DNA from: Archangium sp.
GTDB taxonomy: Bacteria > Myxococcota > Myxococcia > Myxococcales > Myxococcaceae
Assembly (NCBI GenBank): GCA_031367385.1
Contig: JANLPS010000026.1
Span: 1 to 29,807, forward strand
Direction: 5' to 3'
DNA: 29,807 nucleotides
Both the position numbers and the translations under genes were made by a program. Shown here piece by piece: positions 3,602 through 21,652 of this stretch; position 1 is the stretch's first letter; each line of letters opens with the position of its first letter. The notes below the pieces were generated by a model. It was not told the origin of the DNA. It did no database searches and saw only the letters and a program-made list of their open reading frames with translations.

Positions 3602-5997
3602 AGAAGGTGCTCGTGTTGGGCCTCACCGCCGGGTTCATCGTGGTGATTTTTCTCTTCACCCTGGCCGCGCGGGGTGGCTCTGGGGCGATGAGCCCGGTGA
3701 AGTACAGAATGTCGGCGCATGCCTCCCCCGCCGACCGGAGCGCCAACGTGGTGGAGACGGAAGAGCGAATGATGGATGCTGCTCCTGCGGCTCCGGCCCC
3801 AAGCGCCGGGCCGGGCGACAGTTTCGGGGCCCTCATTGGTGGCAACAACAAGGGCGGCGCTGGCCTGCGCGGCGCGGGCGGCGGTGGGGCCCTCGCTGCA
3901 TTCGCGTCACCCAAAACAAAGAGCAAAGCCGAGGCCAAAAAAGAAGCCAGCGCACCCGTCGCCCCCGCTGAGAGCGATGGCGAAGGCGGAGGAGAAGCCA
4001 CCACCCGAGCCTGGTTCCCCGAGACGTTTTTGTTCGAGCCGCTGATCGTCACCGATGCCCAGGGCCGCGCCAATGTGCCGGTCAAGGTGCCCGACCGCCT
4101 CACCACCTGGCGGGTGCTCGCGTTGGCCCATTCGCGGCAAGGGGCTCAAGCCGGCGCGGTCGCCAGTTTCCTCGGCACGCTGCCGACCTACGTCGACCCG
4201 GTCACGCCTCCGTTTCTCTTCGCGGGCGACGAGGTCAAGCTGCCGGTGCAGGTCGTCAACACCACCACCTCCGACATCACCAGCGCGCTGCGCTTCGAGT
4301 CGACCGGCGCCACGCTCTCGGCCACCGGCGGCCCCGTTCGCGTACCCGCCGCGGGCAACACGGTGCAATACGTCACCTTGACCACCAAGAAACCCGGCGT
4401 AGTCGTGGTGAAGACCACGCTGGGCGGCACCGACGCGGTCGAGCGCACCATCGACGTGATGCCCGCGGGTAAACGCGAAGTGCTCTCGCGCGGTGGCTCG
4501 CTGGCAGCCCCCCGCAGCTTCGAGCTCGAGGGCCCCGCGAACGCGCTGCCCGGCAGCGAGCAGGTGCGGCTGCGCGTCTTCCCTGGCGCGTTGGGTCTGG
4601 TTCGCTCCGAGCTCTCCGCGGCTCCAGGACGAGGCGGTGTCGCTGAAGACGCGTATTTGCTGCAGCTTTTGGGTCGCGCGCCCGCGCTGCTGCACGCCCT
4701 CGGCGCCGAAGCCGACTTGCCCACCATTCGAGACCTGTCACTGCTGGCCACACAGCGGGTGATGCAGCACGCCCGGGCTCCGTCAGTCGACTCGGCCACG
4801 CTGCTCACTGAAGCCGCGCTGCAGCACCCCGACAACCCGGTCTTGGCGCGTCTGGGAGAACGGCTCGCGACCCAGGTCGCAGCCGCACAACGCCCTGACG
4901 GCACCTGCCAAGGCGCCACCGGGTGGACGTTGCAGCGTCTTCTGGTCACGACTGGAGAGTGCGTGCGCGCGGTGAAGGCGTCGAAGACCTCGCCCAAGGC
5001 TGAGCAACGGGCCGTCGCGGTCTCGCTCAAAGCCTCGGGGGCCTTCGAGCGCAACGCGGCGCGGGTGAATGACGGCTACACCGCAGCGGCGATTCTGGCT
5101 TCGGGGGCGGTCAGCGGTACCGTGGCCGACGCACTCAAAGCCATCGTGCTCGAGAACATCAAAGACGGCGAAGACGGTGCCAAGTACCTCGAGGTGCCCA
5201 CCGGTGTCGTGCGCGCCGACGGAGCTGCCCCCTCACGCGTCGAGGCCACCGGGCTGGCCGTGCTCGCCCTCCAAGGCGATGACAAAGCGCCACTGGCCGA
5301 CCTCGGCACCTATCTGCTCAGCGGCTACACCCCGATTTACGGCTGGGGTGACGGGCGCGCGAACCTCGTGTGTCTGCGCGCGGTCTCAGAGCTGTTCAAA
5401 GACAAGGTGCCCGCCGGAGTGGCCCTCACCCTCGAGCGCGACGGCAAGGTGCTCGCCGAGGGCAGCATCGATGCCTCCAAGCTCCAAGAGGTCATCTCGC
5501 TCGACGCCGACGCCACCGGCTCTTCGGGCAAGCACACCTGGTCGGTGAAGGCGAACCCGCCCGTGCCTGGCCTGGGCTACTCGCTGTCTCTCGTCGCCTA
5601 CACCCCGTGGCGCGACACCCCCGGAGGAGGCCTCGAGCTCACCACCACGCTCCCCGAGAAGCTCGAGGTCGGCAAGGCGGCCGACGTGCTGCTCACCGCC
5701 TCGATGCCGGGCGGCATGTCCACCAAGCTCCGGCTCGCGCTCCCCGCGGGGGTGCAAACCGATTCAGCCCAACTGAACAAGCTCGTCGCGGCCAACACCA
5801 TCTACCGTTTCGAGACCGAAGACGGCGCGGTGACGATGCATGTGCCGCCGCTCACGAATGGCGCGGTGTTCACCGCGGCGGTTCGGGTCATCCCCACGCT
5901 TGGAGGCCGCCTGCAGTCGGGCGCCTCGCAGCTCGAGCCTGAAGGCCGGCATCTCAACATGAAGTCATTCGCTCCTCGAACCTGGGTGGTCCAATGA
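3598..5997 (+). CDS. Alpha-2-macroglobulin-like protein, C-terminal half (A2M/MG7 and TED-like helical domain, no thioester Cys)
   Basis: Start placed at ATG 3598, an ATGA overlap with the upstream stop, giving MKKVLVLGL (signal/TM). A2M motif TRAWFPETFLFEP...VPDRLTTWRVLALA...PPFLFAGDEVKLPVQVVN, followed by a helical region with QRPDG and VEATGLAVLAL. Confidence 0.85.
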   Translation: MKKVLVLGLTAGFIVVIFLFTLAARGGSGAMSPVKYRMSAHASPADRSANVVETEERMMDAAPAAPAPSAGPGDSFGALIGGNNKGGAGLRGAGGGGALAAFASPKTKSKAEAKKEASAPVAPAESDGEGGGEATTRAWFPETFLFEPLIVTDAQGRANVPVKVPDRLTTWRVLALAHSRQGAQAGAVASFLGTLPTYVDPVTPPFLFAGDEVKLPVQVVNTTTSDITSALRFESTGATLSATGGPVRVPAAGNTVQYVTLTTKKPGVVVVKTTLGGTDAVERTIDVMPAGKREVLSRGGSLAAPRSFELEGPANALPGSEQVRLRVFPGALGLVRSELSAAPGRGGVAEDAYLLQLLGRAPALLHALGAEADLPTIRDLSLLATQRVMQHARAPSVDSATLLTEAALQHPDNPVLARLGERLATQVAAAQRPDGTCQGATGWTLQRLLVTTGECVRAVKASKTSPKAEQRAVAVSLKASGAFERNAARVNDGYTAAAILASGAVSGTVADALKAIVLENIKDGEDGAKYLEVPTGVVRADGAAPSRVEATGLAVLALQGDDKAPLADLGTYLLSGYTPIYGWGDGRANLVCLRAVSELFKDKVPAGVALTLERDGKVLAEGSIDASKLQEVISLDADATGSSGKHTWSVKANPPVPGLGYSLSLVAYTPWRDTPGGGLELTTTLPEKLEVGKAADVLLTASMPGGMSTKLRLALPAGVQTDSAQLNKLVAANTIYRFETEDGAVTMHVPPLTNGAVFTAAVRVIPTLGGRLQSGASQLEPEGRHLNMKSFAPRTWVVQ

Positions 5998-6199: not shown

Positions 6200-7936
6200 T
6201 TACTTCTCGGCCAAGAGCACCTTGAGCTCTTTGACCCGCCGGGTGACGAACTCGCGCTCGAGGCCTTGAAAGACCGTGGGCAGCAGGTCGCGGCTGGTGC
6301 ACTCCTGCACCGCGACCAGGTTCTGCAGCTCGATCTCCAGCGGGTAGCTCGGCGGCACGAAGTCTTTGACCACCGCCTCGACGTCAGCCGTCGTCACCGC
6401 GTCGCGACCTTCGGTGACCGCCCTGAACTTCGAGCGAATCAGCACCGCCTCGATGTCGGCCCCCGAAAACTGCGCCTTGCTCAATGTCGAGAATGACGGC
6501 ACGTCGACCGAGACCTTGGTCTTCTTCTGCATCGCGGTGAACAGCTCGTCTCGCTCAGCGTCGCTCTGCGGGTAGAACAGCGCGATGTGCTCTTCGGCGC
6601 GGCCCTGGCGCTTCAAGTCGATTGGCAGCAAATCAGGGCGGCAGGTCAGCAAGAACCAGACGATCTTGCCCCGGTACTCGGTGTTGCCCATGAACGCAGC
6701 GATCGACGCGAAGATGCGGCTCGAGGTGCCTGAGTCACCACCCGCGTCGCGGTCTCCCAAGAAGGCGTCGGCCTCGTCGATCATCACCGCCACCGGCCAC
6801 AGCGCCTTGAGCAGGTTGAAGATCTTCTCCAAGTTCGCTTCGGTCACACCCTGCCACTGGCTACGAAAGTTCAAGAACTTCACGCAGGGTATGCCGATCT
6901 CCCCAGCGAAACAGGTCACCAAGAAGGTCTTGCCGGTGCCAACCGGGCCCGAGACCAGGTAGCCCATCGGCATCACCTCGATCTTGCCCTTCTTGAGCGC
7001 CTTCGAGGCGTCGCGCAGCATCTTCTTCGCCTTCGCGTGACCCGCCACCACGTCGAGGTTGTACGGAGGCTCGATGAACTCCAAGAGCCCGTGACACTCG
7101 GCCTGAATGATCTCCTTCTTCTTGTCTTTCAAGACCTCGGCCGTGATCTTGGTGCCCTCTTCGGTCGCCTCGGTCAGCAATCGGTCGAGGTTGATGCGCG
7201 AGAGCCCCGCGGTCATCTTCGCCAGGCCCGCCATCGGCACGTCGCTCACCGTCTGAAGCTTCTTGCCCTCGAGCTTCCACTTCACGAAGTCGAGCCGCTC
7301 ATCTTCGGTTGGCAAGCTGATCTCGATGTTCGCCACGTAGGGGTTGCGCGACATGCGCGGCGAGATGTCGGCCAGGTTCTCGACGATCAGCACGATCGAC
7401 AAATCACCCGACAAGAACTGCGGGTCGCCGGCCCACTTGATCAACGTGGCGAGCACGAAGCGGTCTTCTGACGAGAGGTGCGACATGTCGCCAGCGGGCG
7501 CCAACGTCTCGGCGAAGTCGATCACCAGCGCGCACGACTTGCCTTCTCCCACCCGCAGCCGAAGGTAGTTCTCGAGCACCTGCAGCGCGGGCCCGGGCAG
7601 CCGCGGCGGCACCTTGGCGTACTCCGACCCGTACATCGCGTCGTACCCGCTCAAGGCCCGGCTGAAGTCTTGGTGCGTCTCCGGCCGCTCGGCGCGAATA
7701 CCCGAGCTGCGATCGTAGAACAACACGTGGTCTCGCCCGCCGAACAGCTCATCAGACAAGAACTTCTTCAGGTTCTGAAAGTCTTTGCCCCCGTCGCCCC
7801 GCGAGATGGGTTGCAGGTCGCGCACCGCTCCGTAGAGCATGAAGGTGCTGACCGTGCGGGTGTAGTACTTCTGCGCGAGCTTCTGAGCCCAGGGCGGCAG
7901 CCCCGAGAGTGGGTTCTCTGCTTTGGTCTTCGCCAT
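6200..7936 (-). CDS. AAA+ ATPase with a degenerate N-terminal AAA module and an active C-terminal classical AAA module
   Basis: Walker A GPVGTGKT, pore loop SQWQGVTE, Walker B VMIDEAD, SRH-like TCRPDLLPIDLKRQGR and lid FSGADIEAV. The N-terminal half has degenerate FMLYGAVRD and LVIDFAE at the Walker positions. Confidence 0.9.
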   Translation of the reverse strand: MAKTKAENPLSGLPPWAQKLAQKYYTRTVSTFMLYGAVRDLQPISRGDGGKDFQNLKKFLSDELFGGRDHVLFYDRSSGIRAERPETHQDFSRALSGYDAMYGSEYAKVPPRLPGPALQVLENYLRLRVGEGKSCALVIDFAETLAPAGDMSHLSSEDRFVLATLIKWAGDPQFLSGDLSIVLIVENLADISPRMSRNPYVANIEISLPTEDERLDFVKWKLEGKKLQTVSDVPMAGLAKMTAGLSRINLDRLLTEATEEGTKITAEVLKDKKKEIIQAECHGLLEFIEPPYNLDVVAGHAKAKKMLRDASKALKKGKIEVMPMGYLVSGPVGTGKTFLVTCFAGEIGIPCVKFLNFRSQWQGVTEANLEKIFNLLKALWPVAVMIDEADAFLGDRDAGGDSGTSSRIFASIAAFMGNTEYRGKIVWFLLTCRPDLLPIDLKRQGRAEEHIALFYPQSDAERDELFTAMQKKTKVSVDVPSFSTLSKAQFSGADIEAVLIRSKFRAVTEGRDAVTTADVEAVVKDFVPPSYPLEIELQNLVAVQECTSRDLLPTVFQGLEREFVTRRVKELKVLLAEK

Positions 7937-7950
7937 GTGAACGTCGACGC

Positions 7951-10065
7951 CTATTCGGCGCCCGCTTTCCTTTTGAGCACCTTGGTCGGCTGGGTGATCT
8001 CGTTGCCTTCTTTGATGTTCATCGTCTCGGTGTAGGGGTCGTACCCGGGCGCCACGATCATCACTGTGACCTTGCCCGCGGGCACCTTGAGCAGCTGCGG
8101 CCAGTCGGTGATCAACCGCTCACCGCCCTTGCCATCGGGCTCGGTCAGCTCTTTGCCGTTCACGTTGACCCGCGCTTTGCCCACCACGTCGGCCGGCACG
8201 TCCAACATCAGCAGGCCTTGCGCGGGGCGAAGCTTGCCGAAGACGACCATGTACCCCAGCACCAGGGCGAGAATGACCGCGACGACCGCCGCGACGACCA
8301 GACCGCTCCCACCTGCGGCTTGGGCCTGACGCTGGCTCGCGCTGCCGTGGGCTCTGACTCGCGCAGGCCGCTCGGCGGGCGCCATTCGCGGCACGTACGG
8401 CGCGGGCACCGACCCGTGCGGGTTCGAGTCATCGCCCCCCCGCGACCCGGAGATCAGGTTCGGGTCAGACGGCGGCTCTGGCGGCGGAGGCGGCACCGGG
8501 TCGCGCATCGCCGCTGGCCGGCGCGCCATCTCGGTCGCCGGCATCAGCACCGGAGGCCCCGGCATTCGCAACCCAGACGGGCTCGCCCGGGTCGGAGCGA
8601 ACGCATCGTCGAGCGGGCCATTCGAGGTGATCAGCTGGTCACGGTTGATCGAGCCCCGGTTCGGGTCGGTCGGTATGTCGTGGGGCTTGGCCGCGGGAGA
8701 CGCTGTCTCACCGGGGTTGGTCTGCTCAGGGTCGAAGGGCTTGTTGGGGTCGACCAGCAACGTCGCGGCGTGCTCGTCTTTGCCGTTGGCTGACGTCGCG
8801 GAGGCGGCGGTGAGCTTGGGCAGCGCCGCGGCGCCTGGGGGCGGCGGTGGCGCCTGCGGGGGCAACGGCCTGACCGCCATCGGCAGGCCCATCGCCGTCT
8901 CTTGCTGGCTCGTCGGCAAGGGCACTTGCGCCGTGGGCAGCGACCCGCCTCCGGTGACCATCGACGACGGTACTGCCGTCACCGCGCTGGGGCTGGGCAC
9001 GTGCGGAGCGCTCAACACCGGCACCGACCCCGCCCCGTACCCGATGTTGTTGTTCGCCAGCATCATGCCGTCGGGCGGCTTGACGTCGACGTACTCCTGC
9101 AAGCGCTGTTTCTCTTTCTCGACCTCTTCGGCAAAGGTCGCCTTCATGAACGCGGCGAGATCTTTGCGACCGAACACCGTCTCGGTCGTAATCAAGAAGC
9201 GCTGCAGGTCGTCACCCAGCTCGCTGGCGTACTGATAGCGATCTTCGACGTCTTTCGCGAGCGCCTTCATCACGATCTTCTCGAGCGCATCGGGGATGCG
9301 GCGATTGAAGTGCGAGGGCGGCAACACCTCGACCTTGCGCACCTTTTCGAGCACCGAGAAGTCGGAGTCGCCGACGAAGAGCCGCTCGCCCGTCAGCATC
9401 TCGTACAGGCAGATGCCAATCGCGAACACGTCGCTGCGGCGGTCGAGCGGGAGCCCGCGAATCTGCTCCGGGCTCATGTAGCCGAACTTGCCTTTGAGAA
9501 TGCCGGCCTGCGTCTTGGTCGCCTTGCCCGCGGCCTTGGCGATGCCGAAGTCGATGACCTTGACCTCGCCGTCGTAGCTGATCAGCGCGTTCTGCGGCGA
9601 GACATCGCGGTGCACGATGTTCATGTCGCGGCCCATGCGGTCTTTGTTGCGGTGGGCGTAGTCGAGCCCTTCGCAGCAGCGGGCGATGAGGTAGCAGGTC
9701 AGCGGTATCGGCGCCGGCTCACCGCGCTTGCGGCAGCGATCGAACACCGCGCGCATGTCTTTGCCCGAGATGTACTCCATCGCGATGAAGTACGAATTCG
9801 CGATGTTCGCCAGCTCGTAGATCTGCGCGATGTTGGCGTGGTTCAGCTGAACCGTGATCTTCGCCTCGTCGATGAACATCGTGATGAATTCTTCGTCTTC
9901 AGCGATGTTCGGCAAAATGCGTTTGATCGCCACCAGGCGCTCGAAGCCGCCCGCCCCGAAGGTCTTCGCACGCCACACCTCTGCCATGCCGCCGATGTTG
10001 ATGCGGTCGAGCAGCAGGTACTTTCCGAAGGGTATGGGTTGACGTTTGGGAGGAGCGGTAGACAC
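7951..10065 (-). CDS. Membrane-anchored Hanks-type Ser/Thr protein kinase with a C-terminal PEGA-like domain
   Basis: Kinase motifs IGGMAEVW, VAIKRILP, HRDVSPQN, DFGIAKA, YMSPEQ and SDVFAIG. A Pro-rich linker and TM (LVVAAVVAVILALVLGYMVVF) precede a short beta-rich extracytoplasmic domain. GTG start. Confidence 0.95.
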   Translation of the reverse strand: MSTAPPKRQPIPFGKYLLLDRINIGGMAEVWRAKTFGAGGFERLVAIKRILPNIAEDEEFITMFIDEAKITVQLNHANIAQIYELANIANSYFIAMEYISGKDMRAVFDRCRKRGEPAPIPLTCYLIARCCEGLDYAHRNKDRMGRDMNIVHRDVSPQNALISYDGEVKVIDFGIAKAAGKATKTQAGILKGKFGYMSPEQIRGLPLDRRSDVFAIGICLYEMLTGERLFVGDSDFSVLEKVRKVEVLPPSHFNRRIPDALEKIVMKALAKDVEDRYQYASELGDDLQRFLITTETVFGRKDLAAFMKATFAEEVEKEKQRLQEYVDVKPPDGMMLANNNIGYGAGSVPVLSAPHVPSPSAVTAVPSSMVTGGGSLPTAQVPLPTSQQETAMGLPMAVRPLPPQAPPPPPGAAALPKLTAASATSANGKDEHAATLLVDPNKPFDPEQTNPGETASPAAKPHDIPTDPNRGSINRDQLITSNGPLDDAFAPTRASPSGLRMPGPPVLMPATEMARRPAAMRDPVPPPPPEPPSDPNLISGSRGGDDSNPHGSVPAPYVPRMAPAERPARVRAHGSASQRQAQAAGGSGLVVAAVVAVILALVLGYMVVFGKLRPAQGLLMLDVPADVVGKARVNVNGKELTEPDGKGGERLITDWPQLLKVPAGKVTVMIVAPGYDPYTETMNIKEGNEITQPTKVLKRKAGAE

Positions 10066-10106
10066 GCAGCCGACCTGTTCAGCGATGTAGGGAAAACGAA
10101 CCCAGA

Positions 10107-10135
10107 GCTAAGGACGCCTGGCGCAGGCCGTCAAC
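10107..10135 (-). promoter_or_regulatory. Putative internal sigma70-type promoter for the kinase and AAA genes
   Basis: The minus strand reads TTGACG-N17-TTAGCT in the 75-nt gap before the kinase start. Confidence 0.35.
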
Positions 10136-10140
10136 GACTC

Positions 10141-10845
10141 TCAATCGTCAGGTGTAGGTTCAGCGTCGACATCGCCTTCATCAGGAGGGTCAGCTGGCTC
10201 GGCGTCTTCTCGGGCCAACGACACCTCACCCACCCAATCTGGAGCGGTTGAGACCACGCCGGCCGCACCCCGCTGCGCCGTCAGGGGCAGCCCCACCAGC
10301 GTGACCCACGCCCGGCGACGCTCGCGATCGACGCAATACAAGACCGTGCCCACCGGAGCACCACCGGCCAGGGTCAGCGGCCCTGCGCAGCCGAAGTGGA
10401 GCTCGAGGTTCCACCCAGGGGGGCGCTCTCCGTGCACCAGCCAGGGCACGGGCCCCAGCAGCGCCAACAACGGCTCGAGCTCGGTCGAGGTGTCGGGCAC
10501 GGCCTTGGTCGTGGCCAGCGCCTGGGCGCCCTCGGTCATGACCTGCAGCGCCCCCTTCGCGCGCACTTCGGTGCCGAGCGGCGAGCGCGTCGACGAGAGC
10601 ACGATCAGGTCGGTCGCCAGCACGCCGACGATCAGCATCGGCAACACTTTTCGGCTCGTCGGTCGCACCGACAGCGCCAGACCGAGCAGCATCAACCCGC
10701 ACGCCAGCGCCGCGAAGATCACATTGGGCGGCTCGAGCATCGCGCTGACTTCGGCCTGCTGCACCGAAAACCAGACCCAGAGGTCGTGCGCATAGAACGC
10801 GAGCAACGTGATGCCCAAGAATGGGGCGACGTAGGTGCGAATCAC
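10141..10845 (-). CDS. Hypothetical membrane protein (3 TM plus a globular domain with two Cys and an acidic tail)
   Basis: Start placed at GTG 10845, a GTGA overlap with the permease stop, giving MIRTYVAPFLGITLLAF. The ORF-track extension to 10962 overlaps the permease. Three hydrophobic segments. Confidence 0.7.
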   Translation of the reverse strand: MIRTYVAPFLGITLLAFYAHDLWVWFSVQQAEVSAMLEPPNVIFAALACGLMLLGLALSVRPTSRKVLPMLIVGVLATDLIVLSSTRSPLGTEVRAKGALQVMTEGAQALATTKAVPDTSTELEPLLALLGPVPWLVHGERPPGWNLELHFGCAGPLTLAGGAPVGTVLYCVDRERRRAWVTLVGLPLTAQRGAAGVVSTAPDWVGEVSLAREDAEPADPPDEGDVDAEPTPDD

Positions 10846-12125
10846 CCTTGACCCGCAAGGGCCCGCGCGGGGTCGAGTTGGGCGGCCCGGCGTGCGGGCA
10901 AGAACGCGCCGGCCATCGCCGCAACGACGCCGAGGGTGACTCCAGCCAGCAACAACCACCACGGAGCGATGAAGAACGACTCCGGCTTGAAGGGGAACTC
11001 GGGCAGCGCTCGGCTCGAGGCGAAATCAACCGCAGCCGCGGCGGCGATGGCCAGCACGGTGCCGACGAGGCCACCAAAGGCGCCCAACAGCAGCGCCTCG
11101 GCGAACACCAGAGAGAAGACATCGCGCTTCGAAGCGCCGACGGCCCGCATCACGGCCAGCTCTCGCTCCCGGGCCCGCACCGAAGCCGACAACGCATGGG
11201 CGATGTTGAATGCAGCGAGAATGCAGATCAGCACGCTGAGCAGCGCCATCGCCGACGTGGTGATGGCCACCGCCGCCCCCGCGTTTTCAGCCATGCGCCG
11301 CTCTTGATCATCGACGCGAAACCCCATGCCCTTCACGGCCGTCACGATTCGAGGCACCGCTGAAGGCTCTTTGACCCGCAAGGTGACCGCGGTGAAGCTC
11401 TCGGCATCGACGTTGGCGGCGCGGTTGATTCGCATCGCCACCGCCAAGGGCACCGTGATGCCGGCCAGCAACCCGCGGTCAGAGACTCCGACCACCTGCC
11501 CCTGCGCCGACACGATGGGCCCCGCCGGAGCGGCAGTGACAAAAGAGCGATTGAAATCAATGGGAAACATGAACCCCGCGAGCATCGAGCCCGACAGCTG
11601 CGGCAGCGAGCGGGCCGGCGCGAAGGTCTTGTTGTAGATCTCGAGCAGCCTCGAGGCGGCGACGGCTGGTATCGGTTGGCCCGGCCCCGGGTCACTGAAG
11701 TCGCCGATCTGCACGTCGGCTTTCACGAGCGCGGGGTCGACGCCGACGGCGATGATCTCGAGGCCCATGCGCAACTTGCGGCCGAAAAAATCACCGTCGT
11801 ACACGGTGACCGCGGGCACGCGAACGTTCATCTTTCGGTACGCCTCGGTGACGCCGGGCAGCGCCGTGAGCCGGTCTACCGCGGCCTGGTCGATTTTGCC
11901 CCCGCCGAGCAAGCCCAGTGAGAGCTGCGAAGGCACGACCTCGACCAAGCGCGCATCAACGGGGAACACCTTCTCGCGAATGATGGCCCCGACGCCGAGC
12001 CCCAGTGCCACGAAGAACACGAGCGCCGCGACGCCGACGGTGACCCCGAAGGTCGATGACAACGCCCCGCGAATATCGCGAGCCACATTCAACCGCACCA
12101 ACCGCTGAAGGGACGCCAATTTCAT
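10842..12125 (-). CDS. ABC transporter permease, MacB/FtsX/LolE family
   Basis: TM1, then a large periplasmic loop, then an FtsX-type C-terminus (SVRARERELAVMRAVGASKRDVFSLVFAEALLLG...FLPARRAAQLDPARAL). Confidence 0.9.
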   Translation of the reverse strand: MKLASLQRLVRLNVARDIRGALSSTFGVTVGVAALVFFVALGLGVGAIIREKVFPVDARLVEVVPSQLSLGLLGGGKIDQAAVDRLTALPGVTEAYRKMNVRVPAVTVYDGDFFGRKLRMGLEIIAVGVDPALVKADVQIGDFSDPGPGQPIPAVAASRLLEIYNKTFAPARSLPQLSGSMLAGFMFPIDFNRSFVTAAPAGPIVSAQGQVVGVSDRGLLAGITVPLAVAMRINRAANVDAESFTAVTLRVKEPSAVPRIVTAVKGMGFRVDDQERRMAENAGAAVAITTSAMALLSVLICILAAFNIAHALSASVRARERELAVMRAVGASKRDVFSLVFAEALLLGAFGGLVGTVLAIAAAAAVDFASSRALPEFPFKPESFFIAPWWLLLAGVTLGVVAAMAGAFLPARRAAQLDPARALAGQG

Positions 12126-12784
12126 GGCAGGTCGAGCCGCCCATTCTCGAGCGTCAACACCCGGGTCGCCGCATCGCGCAGCCGCGTCTCATGCGTCACC
12201 GCCACCACCGTCAACCCCTCACGGTTGAGCCTCGAGAACAACCCAATCACCTCGTCCGCCGTCAGGGCATCCAAATTCCCGGTCGGCTCATCGCACAGCA
12301 GCACGCTCGGTGAATGCAGCAAGGCCCTTGCAATCGCGACCCGCTGGCGCTCTCCGCCCGACAGCTGGCTCGGCAACCTCGCGGCCTTCTCACCCAGAGC
12401 GACCTGCTCGAGCACCTGCTGACCTCGGGCCCTCGGCGTCGTCTGGGCCGCGAACAGCGACGGCAGCAGCACGTTCTCGAGCGCCGAGAGCCCCGGCACG
12501 AGATGAAACGACTGAAACACGAACCCCACTTCGCGATTTCGAAACCTGGCCAGCTCGGCATCGGTGAGCCCCGAGATTCGCCGCCCCGCCACCGAGACCT
12601 CGCCTGCGTACGCCGTATCGAGCCCGCCGAGCACGTTGAGCAACGTCGACTTGCCGCTGCCCGAGCGCCCCACCACCGCGACGAATTCGCCCTTGGCGAC
12701 CTCGAGGTTGACCTGGTCGAGCACCGCGACCGCGCCGCGCGCTCCGTCATCGAAGCTGCGTGAGACGCCCCGGGCTGAAATCAC
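12122..12784 (-). CDS. ABC transporter ATP-binding protein, LolD/MacB-like
   Basis: GRSGSGKST, GFVFQSFHL, LSGGERQRVAIARAL, LCDEPTGNLD and VTHE. 4-nt overlaps with both neighbours. Confidence 0.95.
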   Translation of the reverse strand: MISARGVSRSFDDGARGAVAVLDQVNLEVAKGEFVAVVGRSGSGKSTLLNVLGGLDTAYAGEVSVAGRRISGLTDAELARFRNREVGFVFQSFHLVPGLSALENVLLPSLFAAQTTPRARGQQVLEQVALGEKAARLPSQLSGGERQRVAIARALLHSPSVLLCDEPTGNLDALTADEVIGLFSRLNREGLTVVAVTHETRLRDAATRVLTLENGRLDLP

Positions 12785-14367
12785 GGCGTCTTCGCACCGA
12801 AGACCAGCGCGACGTTGACCTGAAGCGCCTTGCCATTGGCACCCGCCGACGCGGTCACCGCCTTCAAGTCATCGGTCGCGTCGAGCCACCGCACGGTCGT
12901 GGCCTTGATCGCGAACCCTCCGATGCCCCAGGCGCTGGCGGGCAGCTCACGAACCGAGCTGGCGAGGCGGTTCAAGTCGATCATCACCGACACGGCCTCA
13001 TTCGCCAGCATGGCTGGAGGCACCACATTCGAAGCGGCCTCACCGTCGACCGCCATCAGCTGATCGATGCGCTGCACCGGAGACGCGAAGAACACCAGAT
13101 CGCCCTTGCGCGCGAAGTGCACGCCCTCTCCCGCCGCGTAGGTCGTGAAAAACATCGGAGACGCATTGCGATCGACCTTCGCGATCGTCGCGCCGAACTT
13201 AGGAGCCACCGCGGCGATCTTCTCGAGCGTCGGCGTCACGGTATCGCCCGAGTTCACCAGAGCCACGCCCGACAAGTGCGCGAAGGTGAACGGGTTGGTG
13301 GTGCGCAAATCAAACCGCGGCACGCCCGACCCCATCGGAGGCCGGTCAGCGAGCGAAAACCCGAAAATCACTCCAGGTTTCACCACGTCGAGCACCTCGG
13401 TCTTTACGTTGAAGCTGCCCTCTTCGAAGGCCTTCGCCAGAAACGGCCCGATGAGATCGTTGACCACTGGAGCCAACGTCGCCGGGTCGCCCTGGTACCG
13501 CAGCGCCGCGAACGTGTCTTTGGGCAGGTACCCGTAGAGCGACATCGAAGGCTTGAGCTGCAGCATCGCCAGGTCGCCCGCATCACCCTTCCACGGAGCG
13601 TCGACCGCCAGCGCCAACCCCGCCGTCGACAGTCGCACCGTCACCACCGCGCTCGTCACCGGGTACTTGCGGATGAGGCCCGACCCGACTGGCAGGTACC
13701 CGTAGAGCAACTTGTCGCCCGGCAGTCGGCCCAGCGACGCCTTGAGCGCCTCATCGCGCGCCAGCGAATCAGCCTCGGCAAGCCCCGCGAGGGTCGGCAG
13801 CACGCTGACGTCTTTGGTCGCCACCAGCGCGAAGCCGTTTTTGATCAGGTACCCGACCTTCGGAGGCTCTCCGGCGTGCTCAGAGAACGTCTTCACCACA
13901 GTCTCGCCGTTCTTGAGCTCACCACCCGCCCCTGCGCCGAAGCGCTGCGTGGAGATGCGCTCGAGCGTGGCGTGAAATGCGCCTTCGTCACTCACCGGCA
14001 AGACCAGAACGATCTCTCCGCCCTGCAGCACCACCACGCCCATCGCCCGGTCGGCATCGAGGCCCGCACTCTTCATCGCCGCGGCATCTCGAACGTCGAT
14101 GCCCAGCTGACCGACCAGCGCGTCGCCCAGCGCCTTGCCTGAGTCGAAGCCCTGCAGCTGCCCCAAGAAGGCCGCCACCTTCAACGACTCGAGCACGCGA
14201 AGCCGGTCACCCAGGGTCTTGACCGAGGGCACGATCACCACGGCCGCGGAGGCCGATGGCATCATTCGGCCGACTTCAGTGGCCTTGGCGGCGCTCCCGC
14301 ACTTCGAGCAGCTCGCCATCGCGATGAGCACTGCGAGCATCAGCGAGGCGCGAACGGTGAATTTCAT
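12781..14367 (-). CDS. Hypothetical lipoprotein (possibly DUF3352-like, two-lobed alpha/beta)
   Basis: 528 aa with signal peptide and lipobox (MAS|C). Paired P-x-x-x-x-A motifs (MMPSASAAV, YLPKDTFAAL) suggest two related halves. The family call is tentative. Confidence 0.7.
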   Translation of the reverse strand: MKFTVRASLMLAVLIAMASCSKCGSAAKATEVGRMMPSASAAVVIVPSVKTLGDRLRVLESLKVAAFLGQLQGFDSGKALGDALVGQLGIDVRDAAAMKSAGLDADRAMGVVVLQGGEIVLVLPVSDEGAFHATLERISTQRFGAGAGGELKNGETVVKTFSEHAGEPPKVGYLIKNGFALVATKDVSVLPTLAGLAEADSLARDEALKASLGRLPGDKLLYGYLPVGSGLIRKYPVTSAVVTVRLSTAGLALAVDAPWKGDAGDLAMLQLKPSMSLYGYLPKDTFAALRYQGDPATLAPVVNDLIGPFLAKAFEEGSFNVKTEVLDVVKPGVIFGFSLADRPPMGSGVPRFDLRTTNPFTFAHLSGVALVNSGDTVTPTLEKIAAVAPKFGATIAKVDRNASPMFFTTYAAGEGVHFARKGDLVFFASPVQRIDQLMAVDGEAASNVVPPAMLANEAVSVMIDLNRLASSVRELPASAWGIGGFAIKATTVRWLDATDDLKAVTASAGANGKALQVNVALVFGAKTP

Positions 14368-14375
14368 AGGGGCCC

Positions 14376-15200
14376 TTATCGCACGCGAACGGGCGTCGCG
14401 GCGCTCGACGTCGACGACGAGAGCTCATCGGTCACCCGCATGAAGCTCTCCATTTCGCGCACGGTCTCTTCGGTGGCCGCGACCTCGGCGCTGAGCACGT
14501 CGAGCTGCTGGCTCACCACCTCGGGGTCGCGAATCGCGATTGACTGCTCGTGGGTCAGCCGCAGCATGTCTTCGATGCTCGCCAGCTGGTGGCTGACCAC
14601 CTCGCGGTTCTCAGCGGCCTGCACGAAGCGGTGAATGCGCTTCTTCAAGATGTCGATGCGGCGCGCTTTGACCTCGCGGAGCTTCTCGTTCACGTCGGTC
14701 GCGACCTCTGCCTCGAGGCCCTGCAGCTCGTCTTCGAGCCCCCGCCGGTCAACCACGCTCAAGAACTTGCGATACCCATTGAGCGTCGCGACCAGGCGCA
14801 GAAACGAGGTCAGCAGCGCGTCGAGGCGCCGTTCACTGTTCGCGGCCAGCACCCCGCCGCCCGGCATCTGCCGGTAGCTGGTCAAAATGCGACCGCGCAG
14901 CTCACCAAGCACCTGGTAGTGCTCCCGCTGCGAGGCAGACAGCTCGGCCAACAGGCTCTCGACCTCTTCGGCCGAGGCGACTTCTGAGAAGGCCTGCGCC
15001 TGAAAATTGGCCCGCACCGCACGCCGAAACGAAGGGGCCGTCGAGAGCAGGGTCAAGTACGCGACTGACGCCCCCGCCGCGGCCACCAGGGGGGTCCAAT
15101 CGCCCATCACGGCCCCGGCGATCGCGCCCGCGACCAGCGCGAAGACGTTCGCCGGCATCAACAGCGCCGCGCGCAGGTAGTTCGGAGCTTTACTCGCCAC
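14376..15200 (-). CDS. Membrane-anchored (2 TM) alpha-helical coiled-coil protein
   Basis: An N-terminal hydrophobic hairpin is followed by an E/R/L-rich heptad region. GTG start is 3 nt after the upstream stop. Confidence 0.8.
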   Translation of the reverse strand: MASKAPNYLRAALLMPANVFALVAGAIAGAVMGDWTPLVAAAGASVAYLTLLSTAPSFRRAVRANFQAQAFSEVASAEEVESLLAELSASQREHYQVLGELRGRILTSYRQMPGGGVLAANSERRLDALLTSFLRLVATLNGYRKFLSVVDRRGLEDELQGLEAEVATDVNEKLREVKARRIDILKKRIHRFVQAAENREVVSHQLASIEDMLRLTHEQSIAIRDPEVVSQQLDVLSAEVAATEETVREMESFMRVTDELSSSTSSAATPVRVR

Positions 15201-15203
15201 GAT

Positions 15204-16349
15204 TCAAGGCCCTTTCGACGACACAACGTATCGCAGCGGGCCCAAATCGGTGGTCTCTTCAGTGGCAGGCGCAGCGGTGCCGGTCGCTCCGAGCTTGAAG
15301 CCGAGCGCGGCCGCCGACTGGTACAGCTCGCCGTAGGTCACCGGCGCTTCGCCCTCGAGGCCGAAGAACCCCAGGTTGTCTTTGAGGCTGGCGGGGGGCG
15401 CCGAGCGCATCGCCTCGGTCGGGTCACCCAACTGCGGCGCCGCGAGCCCCAAGGTTCGAGCTGCGTCGCTCGGGTCTTTGGCGGCCTGCGCATTGGCGTC
15501 GAGCGCCCCGCGAATCAACCGGCGAATCGCATCAGGGTAGCGCGCCGCGAAGTCACCCCGGCTGACCAGCACCGTGGCAATCAAATGCGGAGCATCAACC
15601 GTCGAAGCGACCACCGTGCCACCCACTTCTTTCATCGCGGGGTCGAGGTCGCCCAAGTACCCCGCCACCGCGTCGACCTTCTTGGCCTTGAGCGCCGCAC
15701 CGGCTCCAAACGCCGACGGCAGGGGCACCAACGTCACATCGCGCAGCGACAATCCCGCGCGCGACATCGCCCAGAGCGCCAGGTAGTGCGAGGTGCTGCG
15801 CGGCTCGGTACCCAGGCGTTTGCCAGCCAGCATGCCGGGGTTGGTGATGGCCGACGAGCCGACCACCAGGTCTTGCCCGCGGCTTCGTCCCAGCAGCAGC
15901 ACGGTTCTCGGCGCGGCATCACGCAGCGGAGTGGCCATCATCGCCAGGGTCGAGACCGAAATCGCCACCAGGTCGACGCCCCCGTTCTCGCCGCCCTTCA
16001 CGAAGGCCGCGCGGAGGTCGTCTTCTTTGTCGAAGAGCTGCACCTTGACGTCGAGGGCGTAGCCCGCGCGAAACAGGCCCACCCGGTCTCCGTCACCTGT
16101 GGCCCAGAGCAGCGGGGCGACGGTGCCTCGGGGCACCACACCGATCACCGTGGCTCGAAGGGGTATCGCGGCGACATCGTCATCGGGGGCCGCGACCCCA
16201 GCGGGAAAATCACCTGCCGACAACCGCGCCGGGCGACCCCAGAGCCGCTCACGAACCCGGTCGACGTAGCCGTACTGCGACGCCGCGACCGCACCAGCGG
16301 CGGTGAGCACGAACATGAGCGCCAGGAGCACCCGCCCCAATCGCTTCAT
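15204..16349 (-). CDS. Periplasmic binding protein type 2, SsuA/NMT1-THI5-like
   Basis: Signal/TM, then RSRGQDLVV, LAGKRLGTEPRSTSHY, AGLSLRDVTLV, KVDAVAG and HLIATVLVSRGDFAARYPDAIRRLIRG. Confidence 0.8.
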   Translation of the reverse strand: MKRLGRVLLALMFVLTAAGAVAASQYGYVDRVRERLWGRPARLSAGDFPAGVAAPDDDVAAIPLRATVIGVVPRGTVAPLLWATGDGDRVGLFRAGYALDVKVQLFDKEDDLRAAFVKGGENGGVDLVAISVSTLAMMATPLRDAAPRTVLLLGRSRGQDLVVGSSAITNPGMLAGKRLGTEPRSTSHYLALWAMSRAGLSLRDVTLVPLPSAFGAGAALKAKKVDAVAGYLGDLDPAMKEVGGTVVASTVDAPHLIATVLVSRGDFAARYPDAIRRLIRGALDANAQAAKDPSDAARTLGLAAPQLGDPTEAMRSAPPASLKDNLGFFGLEGEAPVTYGELYQSAAALGFKLGATGTAAPATEETTDLGPLRYVVSSKGP

Positions 16350-16412
16350 GCGTCACACCTGGTCAATGCCTGTGGAACGGCGACCCCTCTCGGCAAACCG
16401 CTCAGCAAACCT

Positions 16413-16457
16413 CTCATGGTGAGCCCGTCGAACCACGAACCACGAACCACGAACCAC
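16413..16457. repeat. REP-like unit (CTCATGGTGAGCCCGTCGAACCAC) followed by a tandem heptamer (GAACCAC)x4
   Basis: Four perfect GAACCAC copies at 16430-16457 in the gap between pspA and the SBP gene. The preceding segment resembles the widespread 'TGGTGAGCnTGTCGAACCA' intergenic repeat (recognised from memory). Confidence 0.7.
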
Positions 16458-16459
16458 CA

Positions 16460-17194
16460 CTACTTGATCTCAACCTTCTTCCCGATGGTCTTCTCAGGCG
16501 TCTCGCCGACCTCAGCCACCGGCGCCGGGCTGCTCAACCCCATCTCCATCTTGAACTGCTTCACCAGCTCATTGGCCTGAATCTGCTCAGCGGCCTCTTC
16601 AACCTGAAGCGTCTGATGGTCAACCGACTCGAGCGCCATCGACATGCGCGCCTCGTTCACCGCGGTCTGCTCTTCGACTTTGCGCAGCATCCCATCATGC
16701 GTCGCATCGATGCCCGCGCCCCCGAACGACTCCATCGCGTCGGCGACCTTCGACTGCCACTTCGAGCGGCGGGCATCGCGAATCGCGGCCATCGCTTCTT
16801 GGGTCTTTCGGTCTTTCTCGCGCATGAACATCTTCTTGACGTTCAAGGCCTTCTCGTACGCCGACTTGGCGGTGGCGAGCTGGGCTTCGTTGCGTGAGAG
16901 GGCTCCGCGCTCCATCTGCAAGCGGGTCGCGTACTGCGCGGCGAGATCATCACGCCCGGCCTGAATCGCGGCCTTCACCTTGGCGGTCAGGTCACCGACC
17001 TCTTGCCGGTACTTGGCGTTCTCTTTTTCGAGCAGGGTCTGGTTCGCCCGAACCATGGCGATCGACTCGTTCATCTTCGGCACCTGATCATTCAGGTCGC
17101 GAATGTTCTGCTCGAGAATCAATTCGGGGTCTTCAATCGTGCTGACGAAGAAACCGGCGAAGCTACGCATTGCGCGCTTGAAGCGTTGCCACAT
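16460..17194 (-). CDS. pspA: PspA/IM30 (Vipp1/ESCRT-III superfamily) protein
   Basis: Amphipathic N-terminus MWQRFKRAMRSFAG, then IEDPELILEQNIRDL and a long coiled coil with AIQAGRDDLA. 244 aa. Confidence 0.92.
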   Translation of the reverse strand: MWQRFKRAMRSFAGFFVSTIEDPELILEQNIRDLNDQVPKMNESIAMVRANQTLLEKENAKYRQEVGDLTAKVKAAIQAGRDDLAAQYATRLQMERGALSRNEAQLATAKSAYEKALNVKKMFMREKDRKTQEAMAAIRDARRSKWQSKVADAMESFGGAGIDATHDGMLRKVEEQTAVNEARMSMALESVDHQTLQVEEAAEQIQANELVKQFKMEMGLSSPAPVAEVGETPEKTIGKKVEIK

Positions 17195-17286
17195 GGCGGG
17201 CCCATCTCCCAGGAAAGTGCTGCGGTGACTCTACACGGTTTCAGCCGAACGTCGCGACCAGACGTCGCACTGCGTCGTCGATTGCA

Positions 17287-18513
17287 TCAGCGTCGGCGCC
17301 AGAACAGAGACAGTCTCCCCGAGCTCGCTGTTCCCCCGAAGCGAAAGGTCTCGCTGTTGAAGGTCAGGGCCGCCGCGCGAAACGCGATGGCACTGAAGAT
17401 CAGCACCGAGATCAGGGTCAGTACCACCTCGAAGGGTTGCGCGGTGTCGAGAATCACGGCTTTCACCAGCAGCGCCACGTTCAGCAGGGGCACGAGCGAG
17501 GTCAGCCAGGTCAGCTCAATGCCCGGCATCTGCGCCACCATCGCCGGAGCGAACCCGAGCAGCACCACCGGCACCATCAGCGCCTGGCCCTGCTTCATCG
17601 TCTGGGCGGTCGAGGCCACGGCCAGGGCCAGCCCACTGACCAGCGTCGCGGTCGGCAGCATGCACAGCGCCATCACCGCGATCTGCTCGACCGAGAACTG
17701 CACCGGCATCGCCGACTTGCCGGCGATCACCACGCCGAACCCAAAGGTCAACGCAGTCGCGCTCAAGTTGGCCAGCGCCGTGGTGATCGCCACGATGGTC
17801 ACCGTCGCGTACTTCGCCAGCATCACCTGCGTCGGCCGCACCGGGGCGACCAGGAGCGTCTCGAACGTCCCCCGCTCCTTTTCGCCCGCGGTGGTGTCGA
17901 TGGCGGCCTGAACCGCTCCGGTGATCAGCGTGGTGAGCAGCAAAATCGGCAACAGCGACGCCGCCATCAGGCGACCCAAGCTGTCTTTCAAGTCGAGGTC
18001 GACCGGGTCGGTCTTCACTGGCTGCATGAACGCGGCATCGAGCGACTTCTCATCGAGCCGCTTCTGCAACAGCTCGACGTTGAGTGAGTCGAGTACCGGG
18101 CGCATGCGGTCGAGCGCCTCGCGAGAGCGATCGAAGCGCTTGGCGTACATCACGGTCACCACCGCCTGCTTGCCCGCGCCGAGCGAGTCGACCGCGCCTT
18201 CAGGAGCGCTCACCACCGCCGCCACGGTCTGCAAGGCCAGGTCGACTTTCGCTTCTTCGAGGCTCATCGGCCGGTAGATGGTCTTGGGCGGCACTGGCCG
18301 CTGCTTGAGCAAGGCGGGCGCTTCAGGCCCCACCGTCGCGACGATCAGCTCGGTGTTCTTGAGCCTTTCGGTACCGGCCGCGATCAACACGCTCATCGAG
18401 ATGATCAGCGCCGGGTACAGCACCACCGGCAACCCCAGCGTCATGAACAGCGTGCGTCGATCGCGCACCACGTCGAGCAGCTCTTTGTGCAGCAGAATTC
18501 GAAATGGGCTCAC
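17287..18513 (-). CDS. natB: ABC-2 type permease, NatB-like
   Basis: KELLDVVRDRRT N-terminus, AIDTTAGEKERGTFETLLVAPV signature and multiple TMs. Confidence 0.8.
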   Translation of the reverse strand: MSPFRILLHKELLDVVRDRRTLFMTLGLPVVLYPALIISMSVLIAAGTERLKNTELIVATVGPEAPALLKQRPVPPKTIYRPMSLEEAKVDLALQTVAAVVSAPEGAVDSLGAGKQAVVTVMYAKRFDRSREALDRMRPVLDSLNVELLQKRLDEKSLDAAFMQPVKTDPVDLDLKDSLGRLMAASLLPILLLTTLITGAVQAAIDTTAGEKERGTFETLLVAPVRPTQVMLAKYATVTIVAITTALANLSATALTFGFGVVIAGKSAMPVQFSVEQIAVMALCMLPTATLVSGLALAVASTAQTMKQGQALMVPVVLLGFAPAMVAQMPGIELTWLTSLVPLLNVALLVKAVILDTAQPFEVVLTLISVLIFSAIAFRAAALTFNSETFRFGGTASSGRLSLFWRRR

Positions 18514-18522
18514 GTGTGCGCC

Positions 18523-19242
18523 TCAGGCGACCAGTTGGAGGAACGCGGCGGTGATCGATTCATGCCCGGTCTTGAGCTGCTCCGGCGTGCCTTCAGACAC
18601 CACTTTGCCTTTTCGAATGACCACCACCCGGTTGCACAGCACCTCCGCCTCATCGAGCCGGTGGGTCGAGAAGAGCACCGCCTTGCCGCGAGCCTGCGCG
18701 CGCCGCACCAGGTCGAGAATGTCTTGCGCCGCGACCGGGTCGAGGGCCGCCGTCGGCTCGTCGAGCACGTAGACCGCCGGGTCGTGCACCACCGCACGGG
18801 CAATCGAGATGCGCTGCTTCTGCCCCGACGACAGCGCCCCACACCGGCGATCGACGAAGGGGCCCAGCTCGAGCTCTTCAATCACCTCGTCGATGCGCCG
18901 GCGAAGGGCCGGGCCATCGAGGTCATGGAGCGCTCCGAAGGTCTTCATGATCTCTCTGCCAGTGAGCCGCTCGTACAGCCCCGTGCTCGAGGTCAGAAAG
19001 CCCAGCTGCATGCGGGCCTCGGTGGGCCGCCGCTGCACGTCGATGCCGCCGATGCGGGCGGTGCCTGAAGAGGGCGTCAGCAAGCCCGCAAGCACCCGTA
19101 ACGCGGTCGTTTTACCCGCGCCGTTGGGGCCCAGCAGCCCGACCACCTCCCCGGGAGCGACCGTCAGGGAGACCTCGTCAACGGCCAACAGGTCACCAAA
19201 GCGGCGCGACACTTTCACCAGCTCAAGGGCTTGAGTCGTCAC
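18523..19242 (-). CDS. natA: ABC transporter ATP-binding protein, NatA-like
   Basis: GPNGAGKTT, GLYERLTGRE, LSSGQKQRISIARAVVHDP, LDEPTAALD and STH. Start placed at GTG 19242, 2 nt after the upstream stop. Confidence 0.85.
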   Translation of the reverse strand: MTTQALELVKVSRRFGDLLAVDEVSLTVAPGEVVGLLGPNGAGKTTALRVLAGLLTPSSGTARIGGIDVQRRPTEARMQLGFLTSSTGLYERLTGREIMKTFGALHDLDGPALRRRIDEVIEELELGPFVDRRCGALSSGQKQRISIARAVVHDPAVYVLDEPTAALDPVAAQDILDLVRRAQARGKAVLFSTHRLDEAEVLCNRVVVIRKGKVVSEGTPEQLKTGHESITAAFLQLVA

Positions 19243-19244
19243 GG

Positions 19245-21212: not shown

Positions 21213-21294
21213 TCCTTGGTTGTATGCAAAGCCCGACCGAGACGCCAACCTTGGCCGTCGTGCGATGCGCCGCACCCCCAACGCCGGTCGACGA

Positions 21295-21652
21295 TCAGCG
21301 TGACGTTTGAGCGTTTCGCGCGACCTCAGCACCGCCCTCGGGATCGTGGCTTGCCCACTTCGGCAAGCTGCAGTGCAAGCACCGCGACGCAAATGGGTTG
21401 CGCACAAGCCAGGTGGCGAAAAATCTCTTATTGCACCGAGGGCAGCGGAAGTACCCGGCGCCGACGACGGTCACGGCGATGAAGAGAAACCAGGCTCCAA
21501 CGAAGAGGGGGACAATTCGCGGGGCATCGAGCCATCTGCGCACTTGAAACACCAGAAGAGCAAATGGCACGTGCCCGATGAACGCCACCAGTCGCAGCCG
21601 GGCCCAGGTTCGGTACCGTTGCCACGCACGTGCGTAAGTCAGCGTCTCCCAT
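21295..21652 (-). CDS. Small 2-TM membrane protein with a C-terminal zinc ribbon (CPRC...CLHC); 5' end uncertain, possible frameshift after ATG 21652
   Basis: ORF 21295..21588 has two TMs and CxxC-x16-CxxC. The same frame stays open upstream (WETLTYARAWQRYRTWARLRLV). ATG 21652 would be in frame if one G of ATGGGAG were removed. Confidence 0.55.

Follow-up and report, generated by a model that had tools for sequence, protein, structure and literature searches.

A family-wide pspA operon ending in a tandem AAA+ ATPase gene in Archangium sp., and a candidate role for the ATPase in remodelling PspA polymers

Do bacteria possess a motor that recycles PspA polymers, as Vps4 recycles those of ESCRT-III? 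In the published work cited here, a Vps4-like ATPase is treated as absent or unknown in bacteria (PMC7619361, PMC11188069, PMC11746142) and the turnover of PspA polymers is left open (PMC7619361, PMC11746142). The question is raised anew by a nine-gene operon on contig JANLPS010000026.1 of Archangium sp. (assembly GCA_031367385.1; genome G000 below), which begins with pspA and ends with the gene for a tandem AAA+ ATPase. The window, i.e. the whole stretch of DNA analysed, is 29,807 nucleotides long and the operon lies at 6200-17194. A preliminary description of the window had proposed a complete ESCRT-like membrane-remodelling system. Part of this stood, since a conserved PspA operon with a membrane partner was found and the ATPase is a fair candidate for a PspA remodeller; the likeness to Vps4 did not, as the ATPase resembles Cdc48/p97. 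We lean, by a small measure, towards the view that the ATPase acts on PspA polymers at the inner membrane under stress, recycling or reshaping them as Vps4 does those of ESCRT-III.

The operon is a real, family-wide variant of a system predicted in 2024 by Ravi et al. (PMC11237479). The earlier suspicion that parts of the arrangement were already catalogued proved truer than was thought, as that paper lists both the operon type and the ESCRT-III/Vps4 analogy: PspA operons with an inactive and an active AAA module in tandem are described, and ATP-dependent remodelling comparable to Snf7/Vps4 is proposed. Its examples of an inactive classical AAA joined to a classical AAA (Handelsmanbacteria OGG56892.1, Clostridium AEY64321.1) share the ATPase architecture of the window, and their order of PspA, PBPB+OmpA, permease, ABC (ATP-binding cassette), transmembrane (TM) protein and AAA was met in distant relatives. 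The window likewise holds two AAA modules, the first inactive, with PspA, a TM-helical gene, a PBPB solute-binding protein (SBP) and an ABC. Relative to the Handelsmanbacteria row, its SBP lacks OmpA and an importer, and a lipoprotein, a MacB-type ABC, a membrane protein and a kinase stand between the TM partner and the AAA gene; the MacB-type ABC, unlike that importer, is as in the Archangium gephyra row. The latter row (Table S3 of PMC11237479: PspA, SBP, TM-'Snf7', DUF3352, ABC, TM, TM) agrees with the first seven window genes in order and predicted domain type. It comes from the same family as the window's closest named relatives, which are Myxococcaceae assemblies, and it stops after the second TM gene, without the kinase or the tandem AAA, both of which follow in nearly all family members.

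The pairing and the remodelling idea were therefore already known. Added here are a pattern of joint loss, a motif in the PspA tail and the single-copy locus throughout the family, of which the motif and the co-loss analysis are not in the parts of PMC11237479 examined. Together these make the system directly testable, with the tail motif as a precise target for mutation. If the proposed role is true, a recycling motor for ESCRT-III polymers would have evolved convergently from the Cdc48 lineage. The family includes genetically tractable myxobacteria.

Joint distribution of pspA and the ATPase gene

Forty three genomes from the window's own family were compared with 107 genomes from outside it. 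Linkage and co-occurrence in relatives, on which the preliminary description had made its case depend, were both found: all 43 family genomes carry pspA and the ATPase gene, and in 39 of them pspA lies upstream of the ATPase gene on the same strand and contig, at most 14 kb away (linkage counts were read by hand from the search output). In the other four, pspA lies within 3.2 kb of a contig end. Each of the 43 gave a single pspA match, and 16460-17194 is the sole PF04012 match in G000. Gene retention was counted in the 36 loci that extend 9 kb or more upstream of the ATPase gene, where some misses lie past the 10 kb fetched: PspA was kept in 30, the SBP in 26, the TM partner in 31, the lipoprotein in 29, the ABC ATPase in 31, its permease in 31, the second membrane protein in 21 and the kinase in 35.

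Outside the family, the ATPase was scored as present at E<=1e-40, and 80 of the 107 genomes were surveyed with a profile built from ATPase-associated PspAs. Scores fell apart into a high type (>180 bits) and all others (<=113.5 bits). The high type was carried by 36 of 38 ATPase-bearing genomes and by none of 42 without the ATPase, and by 18 of the 20 ATPase-bearing genomes that had no part in building the profile. In the two exceptions, a more divergent PspA is encoded no more than 4 kb upstream of the ATPase gene. Adding the 27 genomes outside the survey (11 from family f18, 10 from f7, 3 from f3, 2 from f8 and 1 from f9), which were judged from presence searches and include the counter-example G026, gives 39/41 against 1/66. 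Moreover, the same three deep groups appear in the trees of the ATPase and of PspA, both quick trees as was that of the SBP, and every group includes at least some full operons. The phyla covered were the window's own and Spirochaetota; a metagenome scan with a distant TM partner yielded only four loci.

Operons of distant families lack the lipoprotein, the MacB-type ABC and the kinase; they comprise PspA, SBP+OmpA, a permease of importer type, an ABC ATPase, the TM partner and the AAA. PspA, the SBP, the TM partner and the AAA are thus taken as the old core, because only those recur in distant lineages. Within this core pspA and the ATPase gene are, on these counts, the tightest pair of the operon, and the pair outlasts loss of the SBP, TM partner, ABC or kinase. 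Conversely, three lineages (C423/C49 of G000, L184/L185 and L188) hold an intact SBP-permease-ABC-TM module with neither pspA in front nor the AAA behind. The SBPs of these lineages fall in three separate parts of the tree. The first module is a paralogous one in the window's own genome, which holds the window's pspA-AAA pair elsewhere; it comprises a coiled protein, SBP+OmpA, importer permease, ABC ATPase and TM-helical partner (C423:93-3400 and C49:1-1630), which we infer to be joined across a contig break. The family ATPase was not found by profile search in G089, G139 or G096. In family f14 both genes were kept in 17 of 17 genomes, though they are unlinked in those examined.

These patterns bear on the alternative of a loose envelope-stress regulon, in which a PspA-TM pair shares a promoter with a general unfoldase, a kinase and an ABC exporter without a common mechanism, and DnaK or the NTPase activity of PspA itself handles turnover. 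The middle genes are indeed gained and lost piecemeal, the ATPase is unlinked or solitary in several lineages, and PspA rods hydrolyse ATP themselves (PMC11746142). An HSP70 is reported to disassemble VIPP1, the plastid relative of PspA, through its C-terminal tail (PMC12798727), so a non-AAA route exists in the PspA superfamily, a point that also tells against a recycling role for the ATPase. Such a regulon nevertheless appears quite unlikely, given that pspA and the AAA are jointly absent from opposite ends of the module in three lineages, that their trees mirror each other and that both genes persist in all 17 f14 genomes though unlinked in those examined.

Among the third-clade loci L129 (11123-12215), L177, L178 and L179, the ATPase gene has a TerB-like gene behind it in L129 and similar short genes behind it in L177 and L178, and a conserved coiled protein is encoded before pspA or after the ATPase gene.

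The ATPase and the PspA tail

The predicted structure of the ATPase (pLDDT 84) has two AAA modules, D1 and D2, and no additional N-terminal domain, the alpha/beta fold of D1 being entered after one helix. D1 is missing its Walker A motif, while D2 has Walker A, Walker B, a W-Q-G pore loop and KRQGR arginine fingers. Among 45 aligned orthologues, D2 retains Walker A in 45, the Walker B pattern in 44, W-Q-G in 45 and KRQGR in 45, and Walker A is found in the first 200 residues of none. The closest fold and sequence matches are p97/Cdc48/VAT (Foldseek E 3e-17, TM-score ~0.41), at 15-20% identity to Cdc48/p97/VAT; no Vps4 is among the best 60 rows. As the fold matches, the D2 motifs and the D1 without Walker A all indicate, the ATPase is predicted to thread its substrates as Cdc48-type motors do, its first ring being dead; it is not a Vps4. 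The D1-D2 fold, the aromatic pore loop and the R-x-G-R arginine fingers are shared with the type II unfoldases Cdc48/p97/VAT; the lack of an N-domain and of Walker A in D1 sets it apart from them, and it scores 82.8 against the CDC48 model (cut-off 802.65).

Membership of the Vps4 group was considered and rejected: there is no Pfam match to MIT in the ATPase, the AAA modules are in tandem, the CdvC model gives 42.4 bits against a cut-off of 650, and KRQGR is invariant in the 45 orthologues, in contrast to the adjacent arginines of Vps4. The locus resembles the ESCRT-III/Vps4 (CdvB/CdvC) systems of archaea and eukaryotes in that an ESCRT-III-superfamily protein with a free C-terminal tail is encoded beside a pore-loop AAA+ motor. 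With two AAA modules, no MIT and best matches to Cdc48/p97, it is an analogue and not a member.

No ATPase relative was confirmed on viral contigs. Five distant matches from Bacillota (26-30% identity) are on plasmids, and the two that were read have no annotated PspA within 6 kb; on Paenibacillus and Aneurinibacillus megaplasmids (L133, L134), distant full-length homologues stand among hypothetical genes.

PspA of the window matches PF04012 (PspA_IM30) over residues 2-208 with 66 bits (cut-off 33.9). After its last helix and a variable linker comes a short tail motif, K235-T-I-G238. The motif takes the form K-T-I-G in the window's class, K-[AEN]-L-G-P in a second group and terminal [KR]-T-M in a third. 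K-x-[ILMV]-G is present in all of 120 close PspA homologues. The tail pattern, which was defined post hoc once the sequences had been viewed, occurs in 32 of 36 high-scoring, ATPase-associated PspAs and in 0 of 36 low-scoring ones. In the PspA of G026, whose genome lacks the ATPase, the motif is altered and its glycine lost, a single loss. From these comparisons K235-T-I-G238 is a lead, and may be a docking or engagement signal for the ATPase.

Two further features of PspA were noted. Residues 158, 159 and 168 in the window (16691-16722) are Gly, where all 12 closest homologues have Glu, Val and Glu; these are possibly assembly errors or a private variant. Tandemly duplicated pspA genes with differing tails occur in L140/L144 (G201:C179) and L141/L143 (G202:C8), and both genomes are also ATPase-positive.

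Complex prediction for the ATPase with PspA residues 150-244 gave a score of 0.42 (best of three controls 0.00), which is weak support for contact: 116 of 157 solved complexes attained the score mark, as did 2 of 215 mismatched pairs, and scores at the mark but <=0.60 came from only 18 of the 157 and from both mismatches. At least 41% of contacts agreed between runs and the partner pLDDT was at least 44; the interface is not given. Taken with the genomic prior, the score raises the odds modestly. ATPase residues particular to PspA-associated lineages give no signal, with 10 such columns against 13 in a control split.

A possible sequence of events can be set out. The TM-anchored helical protein would draw PspA to the membrane, like mycobacterial PspM. 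PspA would polymerise via its conserved core, leaving the C-terminal tail free. An ATPase hexamer would then engage the C-terminal region of PspA, probably at the K/R-x-hydrophobic(-G) motif, and thread subunits along the pore loops of D2, D1 serving as a ring for structure or docking. The SBP, which in its ancestral form was an SBP+OmpA protein with its own importer, would likely couple the PspA cycle to a periplasmic cue. A fuller and more tentative version, which we hold to be rather less than probable, is of a bacterial equivalent of ESCRT-III/Vps4: a Cdc48-like double-ring motor without N-domain would read the K/R-x-hydrophobic(-G) tail of a dedicated PspA clade as an analogue of the MIM and dismantle its polymers, a TM-anchored, BAR-like three-helix protein would serve as a curvature-sensing recruiter, and in Myxococcaceae the kinase could gate the process via the tail threonine.

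Several points weigh against a recycling role. Genes of an operon co-travel for reasons besides physical contact, and related genomes are not independent; the PspA profile came from ATPase-bearing genomes and 18 of the 36 positives were in it. pspA and the ATPase gene are unlinked in G165, in G032 and in the f14 genomes examined. G026, which is 99% complete, has a high-type PspA without the ATPase, and no ATPase was found in G113, whose PspA lies on the ATPase-associated side of the tree. Neither an MIT nor an N-domain is present in the ATPase to account for recognition of PspA. As to the tail, the post hoc definition counts here too, the three sub-motifs may lack homology to each other, and the two divergent linked PspAs (G085 and G141) show no such motif over their final 25 residues. 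No published experimental test of the PspA-tandem AAA pairing was found in the literature searched. The spirochaetes carry ATPase orthologues that are 47-56% identical, nested in the same clade and intact in their motifs, in variable contexts. Neither PspA nor the TM partner is encoded at 26 of 26 of these loci, several of which are short, and the TM partner was not found in 26 of 26 spirochaete genomes searched, of unknown completeness. Their PspAs are of the ordinary type (<=112.5 bits), and the tail motif is in 0 of 12 examined. Since spirochaetes keep the ATPase alone, it has a use without this PspA type.

In the spirochaetes (L075-L100, L101-L112) pspA is mostly found elsewhere, behind a small conserved gene.

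The relation could also run in reverse, as with PspF, PspA holding the ATPase inactive until membrane stress frees it for other targets. The operon would then be a signalling switch fed by the SBP and the kinase. Any binding mode would suit the co-distribution and the weak complex score, the ATPase lives independently in spirochaetes, and in proteobacteria inhibition runs both ways between PspA and the AAA+ protein PspF (PMC7619361). This reversal is nonetheless improbable, because the ATPase is of the classical AAA kind, has a pore loop for threading substrates and lacks a DNA-binding domain. Moreover, of PspA only the C-terminal 95 residues entered the contact prediction, whereas PspF binds the N-terminal hairpin of PspA.

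The membrane partner and a rival client for the ATPase

The TM partner is a family with about 1,100 representatives at E<=0.001. Its predicted structure (pLDDT 91.6) places two N-terminal helices in a hydrophobic stretch, followed by a long three-helix bundle. It is likely the 'SIG+TM+Snf7' protein of Ravi et al. (PMC11237479), although the 'Snf7' label was not reproduced. Foldseek returned no match at E<=0.001 and no ESCRT-III, Snf7 or PspA chain among the matches listed, nor was any such chain among the best 50 rows of VIA-align. Profile comparison with PspA gave a probability of 2.6%, a sequence search of the PDB was empty, and PF03357, PF25587 and PF10112 matched the protein in none of 5 genomes, PF25587 not even at E 1. 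The best structural rows are helical bundles, which at Z up to 11.0 (root-mean-square deviation 5.3, 151 residues aligned) lie under the trust level for such folds. BAR-family domains make up 9 of the best 50 VIA-align rows (Z 8.3-11.0) and are kept as a lead only.

A different parallel is offered by mycobacteria, whose PspM retains a PspA species at the membrane (bioRxiv 10.64898/2026.09.09.750162). Among named Atlas clusters, the one closest to the TM partner is PspM/Rv2743c (0.88, the family being on 40% of members and 183/256 features shared). The likeness to PspA-PspM (Rv2744c-Rv2743c) is that of a membrane protein of about 270 amino acids in a pspA operon; the differences are that PF25587 misses the TM partner in all five genomes and that no AAA is described there. 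In six f14 loci the TM partner is encoded directly behind pspA, a position that fits a PspM-like role. The TM partner likely recruits PspA to the membrane, as predicted from these similarities.

In three distant clades the gene stands directly before the AAA. This arrangement would suit another alternative, that the ATPase is a p97-like membrane extractase for some other envelope client, such as the TM-helical partner or a transporter, and PspA merely co-regulated. Cdc48/p97/VAT, the closest solved relatives of the ATPase, do extract membrane proteins, and the spirochaetes keep the ATPase without this PspA type. However, the spirochaetes are without the TM partner too. Loci with a missing or broken TM partner (L118, L119, L121, L257, L258) still have the AAA and PspA, and where PspA and the AAA are both missing the TM partner and importer remain. 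An extractase for another client is thus considered unlikely, and PspA is retained as the more plausible substrate.

Operon layout, accessory genes and surroundings

The features of the operon are given in Table 1. The preliminary description had counted nine co-oriented genes; when recomputed, the coordinates and all eight gaps (110, 3, 8, -4, -4, -4, 75 and 14 nt) between the nine minus-strand open reading frames (ORFs) were exact, with the start of 10141-10845 taken as GTG at 10845. The GC content at third codon positions is 0.82-0.89 in all nine frames. It had also recognised no pspF, pspB or pspC, which was borne out, as no PspF, PspB or PspC family match was found in the 22 window ORFs scanned, smaller ORFs being outside the scan.

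Table 1. Predicted features of the pspA-ATPase operon, with positions in the window
Feature	Position	Strand	Basis
-10-like promoter box TAGAGT (predicted)	17228..17233	-	upstream of pspA
Shine-Dalgarno-like GGGAG	17206-17210	-	ahead of pspA
PspA/IM30, ESCRT-III superfamily, 244 aa, divergent ATPase-associated type	16460..17194	-	PF04012
PspA tail motif K235-T-I-G238 past variable linker	16481..16492	-	sequence comparison
Membrane-anchored NMT1/SsuA-type SBP	15204..16349	-	family scan
TM partner: two predicted TM helices and long three-helix cytoplasmic bundle	14376..15200	-	model; no Pfam family
Predicted lipoprotein, DUF3352-like, lipobox-like Cys20 from sequence	12781..14367	-	Atlas features 0.96 to DUF3352 clusters; no Pfam match
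ABC ATPase, LolD/MacB/FtsE group	12122..12784	-	ABC_tran; LolD 229.6 bits
FtsX/MacB-type four-TM permease	10842..12125	-	PF02687; LolC/E 62.9 bits
Small membrane protein without known family, least conserved gene (21/36 loci)	10141..10845	-	no Pfam match
Hanks-type Ser/Thr kinase: intact motifs, Pro-rich linker, one TM helix, PEGA-like outer domain (weak match)	7951..10065	-	Pkinase
Tandem AAA+ ATPase, 578 aa, p97/Cdc48-like, without N-domain or MIT	6200..7936	-	AAA and lid, motifs, model

In 21 of 28 loci the 90 nt upstream of pspA contain a TA[GCA]A[GCA]T box, a pattern picked by eye after the sequences were viewed (shuffled sequences: mean 2.4, maximum 8; reverse strand: 0). No full promoter was found in a sigma-70 consensus scan of the locus, and a terminator scan was likewise uninformative. 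No RNA record was listed for 7500-17400, which counts neither for nor against transcription. Because the -10-like box precedes pspA in these loci, the transcription unit likely begins there, and co-transcription of the operon is predicted.

The idea of a complete nine-part machine was given up. The MacB-type ABC, the lipoprotein, the second membrane protein and the kinase were seen in the operon in the window's own class only, and are lost piecemeal, whereas the old core recurs in distant lineages. As the ABC, lipoprotein and kinase are lineage add-ons, lipid or lipoprotein transport and phospho-control, both parts of the preliminary proposal, have no support either. We regard the lipoprotein, the MacB-type ABC and the kinase as accessory envelope genes that were gained in the window's class.

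No evidence of lipid transport by the ABC was obtained. LolCDE was rejected as an assignment, the scores being 229.6 for LolD (cut-off 307.75) and 62.9 for LolC/E (cut-off 362.45). The pair instead belongs to the MacB/FtsX (type VII) ABC superfamily, with PF02687 at 76.3 bits and PF00005; the 20.1 bits of PF12704 fall short of its cut-off. None of the nine operon genes was recognised as MacA-like. A literature search on DUF3352 returned no paper, and one on Myxococcus with PspA or IM30 nothing relevant.

No evidence for phospho-control was found. The kinase is kept in 35 of the 36 loci and is orthologous across the window's class, and its tie to PspA or the ATPase is by position alone. In f14 (L126, L132, L267, L269-L273, L275) the unlinked ATPase gene often adjoins a Ser/Thr kinase gene, a possible parallel to the window; the window kinase is the best match of only 2 of 7 such kinases, in a genome with 114 kinase-like matches, and these are not clearly orthologous.

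Judged from its sequence, the window SBP is a shortened orthologue of the SBP+OmpA protein of the distant operons. It is without the OmpA domain and differs at positions conserved between the distant clades. An importer of SsuABC/TauABC type was sought beside it and rejected: no BPD permease and ATPase adjoin the SBP, and none of the 15 PF00528 matches in the genome is on the window's contig. A related permease belongs to the second module, on C423.

Directly past the pspA stop codon, at 16430-16459, are about four copies of the 7-base unit TGGTTCG. Upstream of pspA, co-oriented genes at 17287-21407 encode a 720-aa protein with a carboxypeptidase-regulatory-like domain and an ABC-2 ATPase/permease pair, and in many family loci either the gene for the 720-aa protein or the ABC-2 pair stands before pspA. 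Weak matches were found to STIG1 in a protein at 27175-28815 and to DUF4299 in one at 22866-23705. At the other end of the operon, two plus-strand genes that converge on it (539-5997) encode alpha-2-macroglobulin-like domains split between them, and the second of the two sits just behind the ATPase gene in many family loci.

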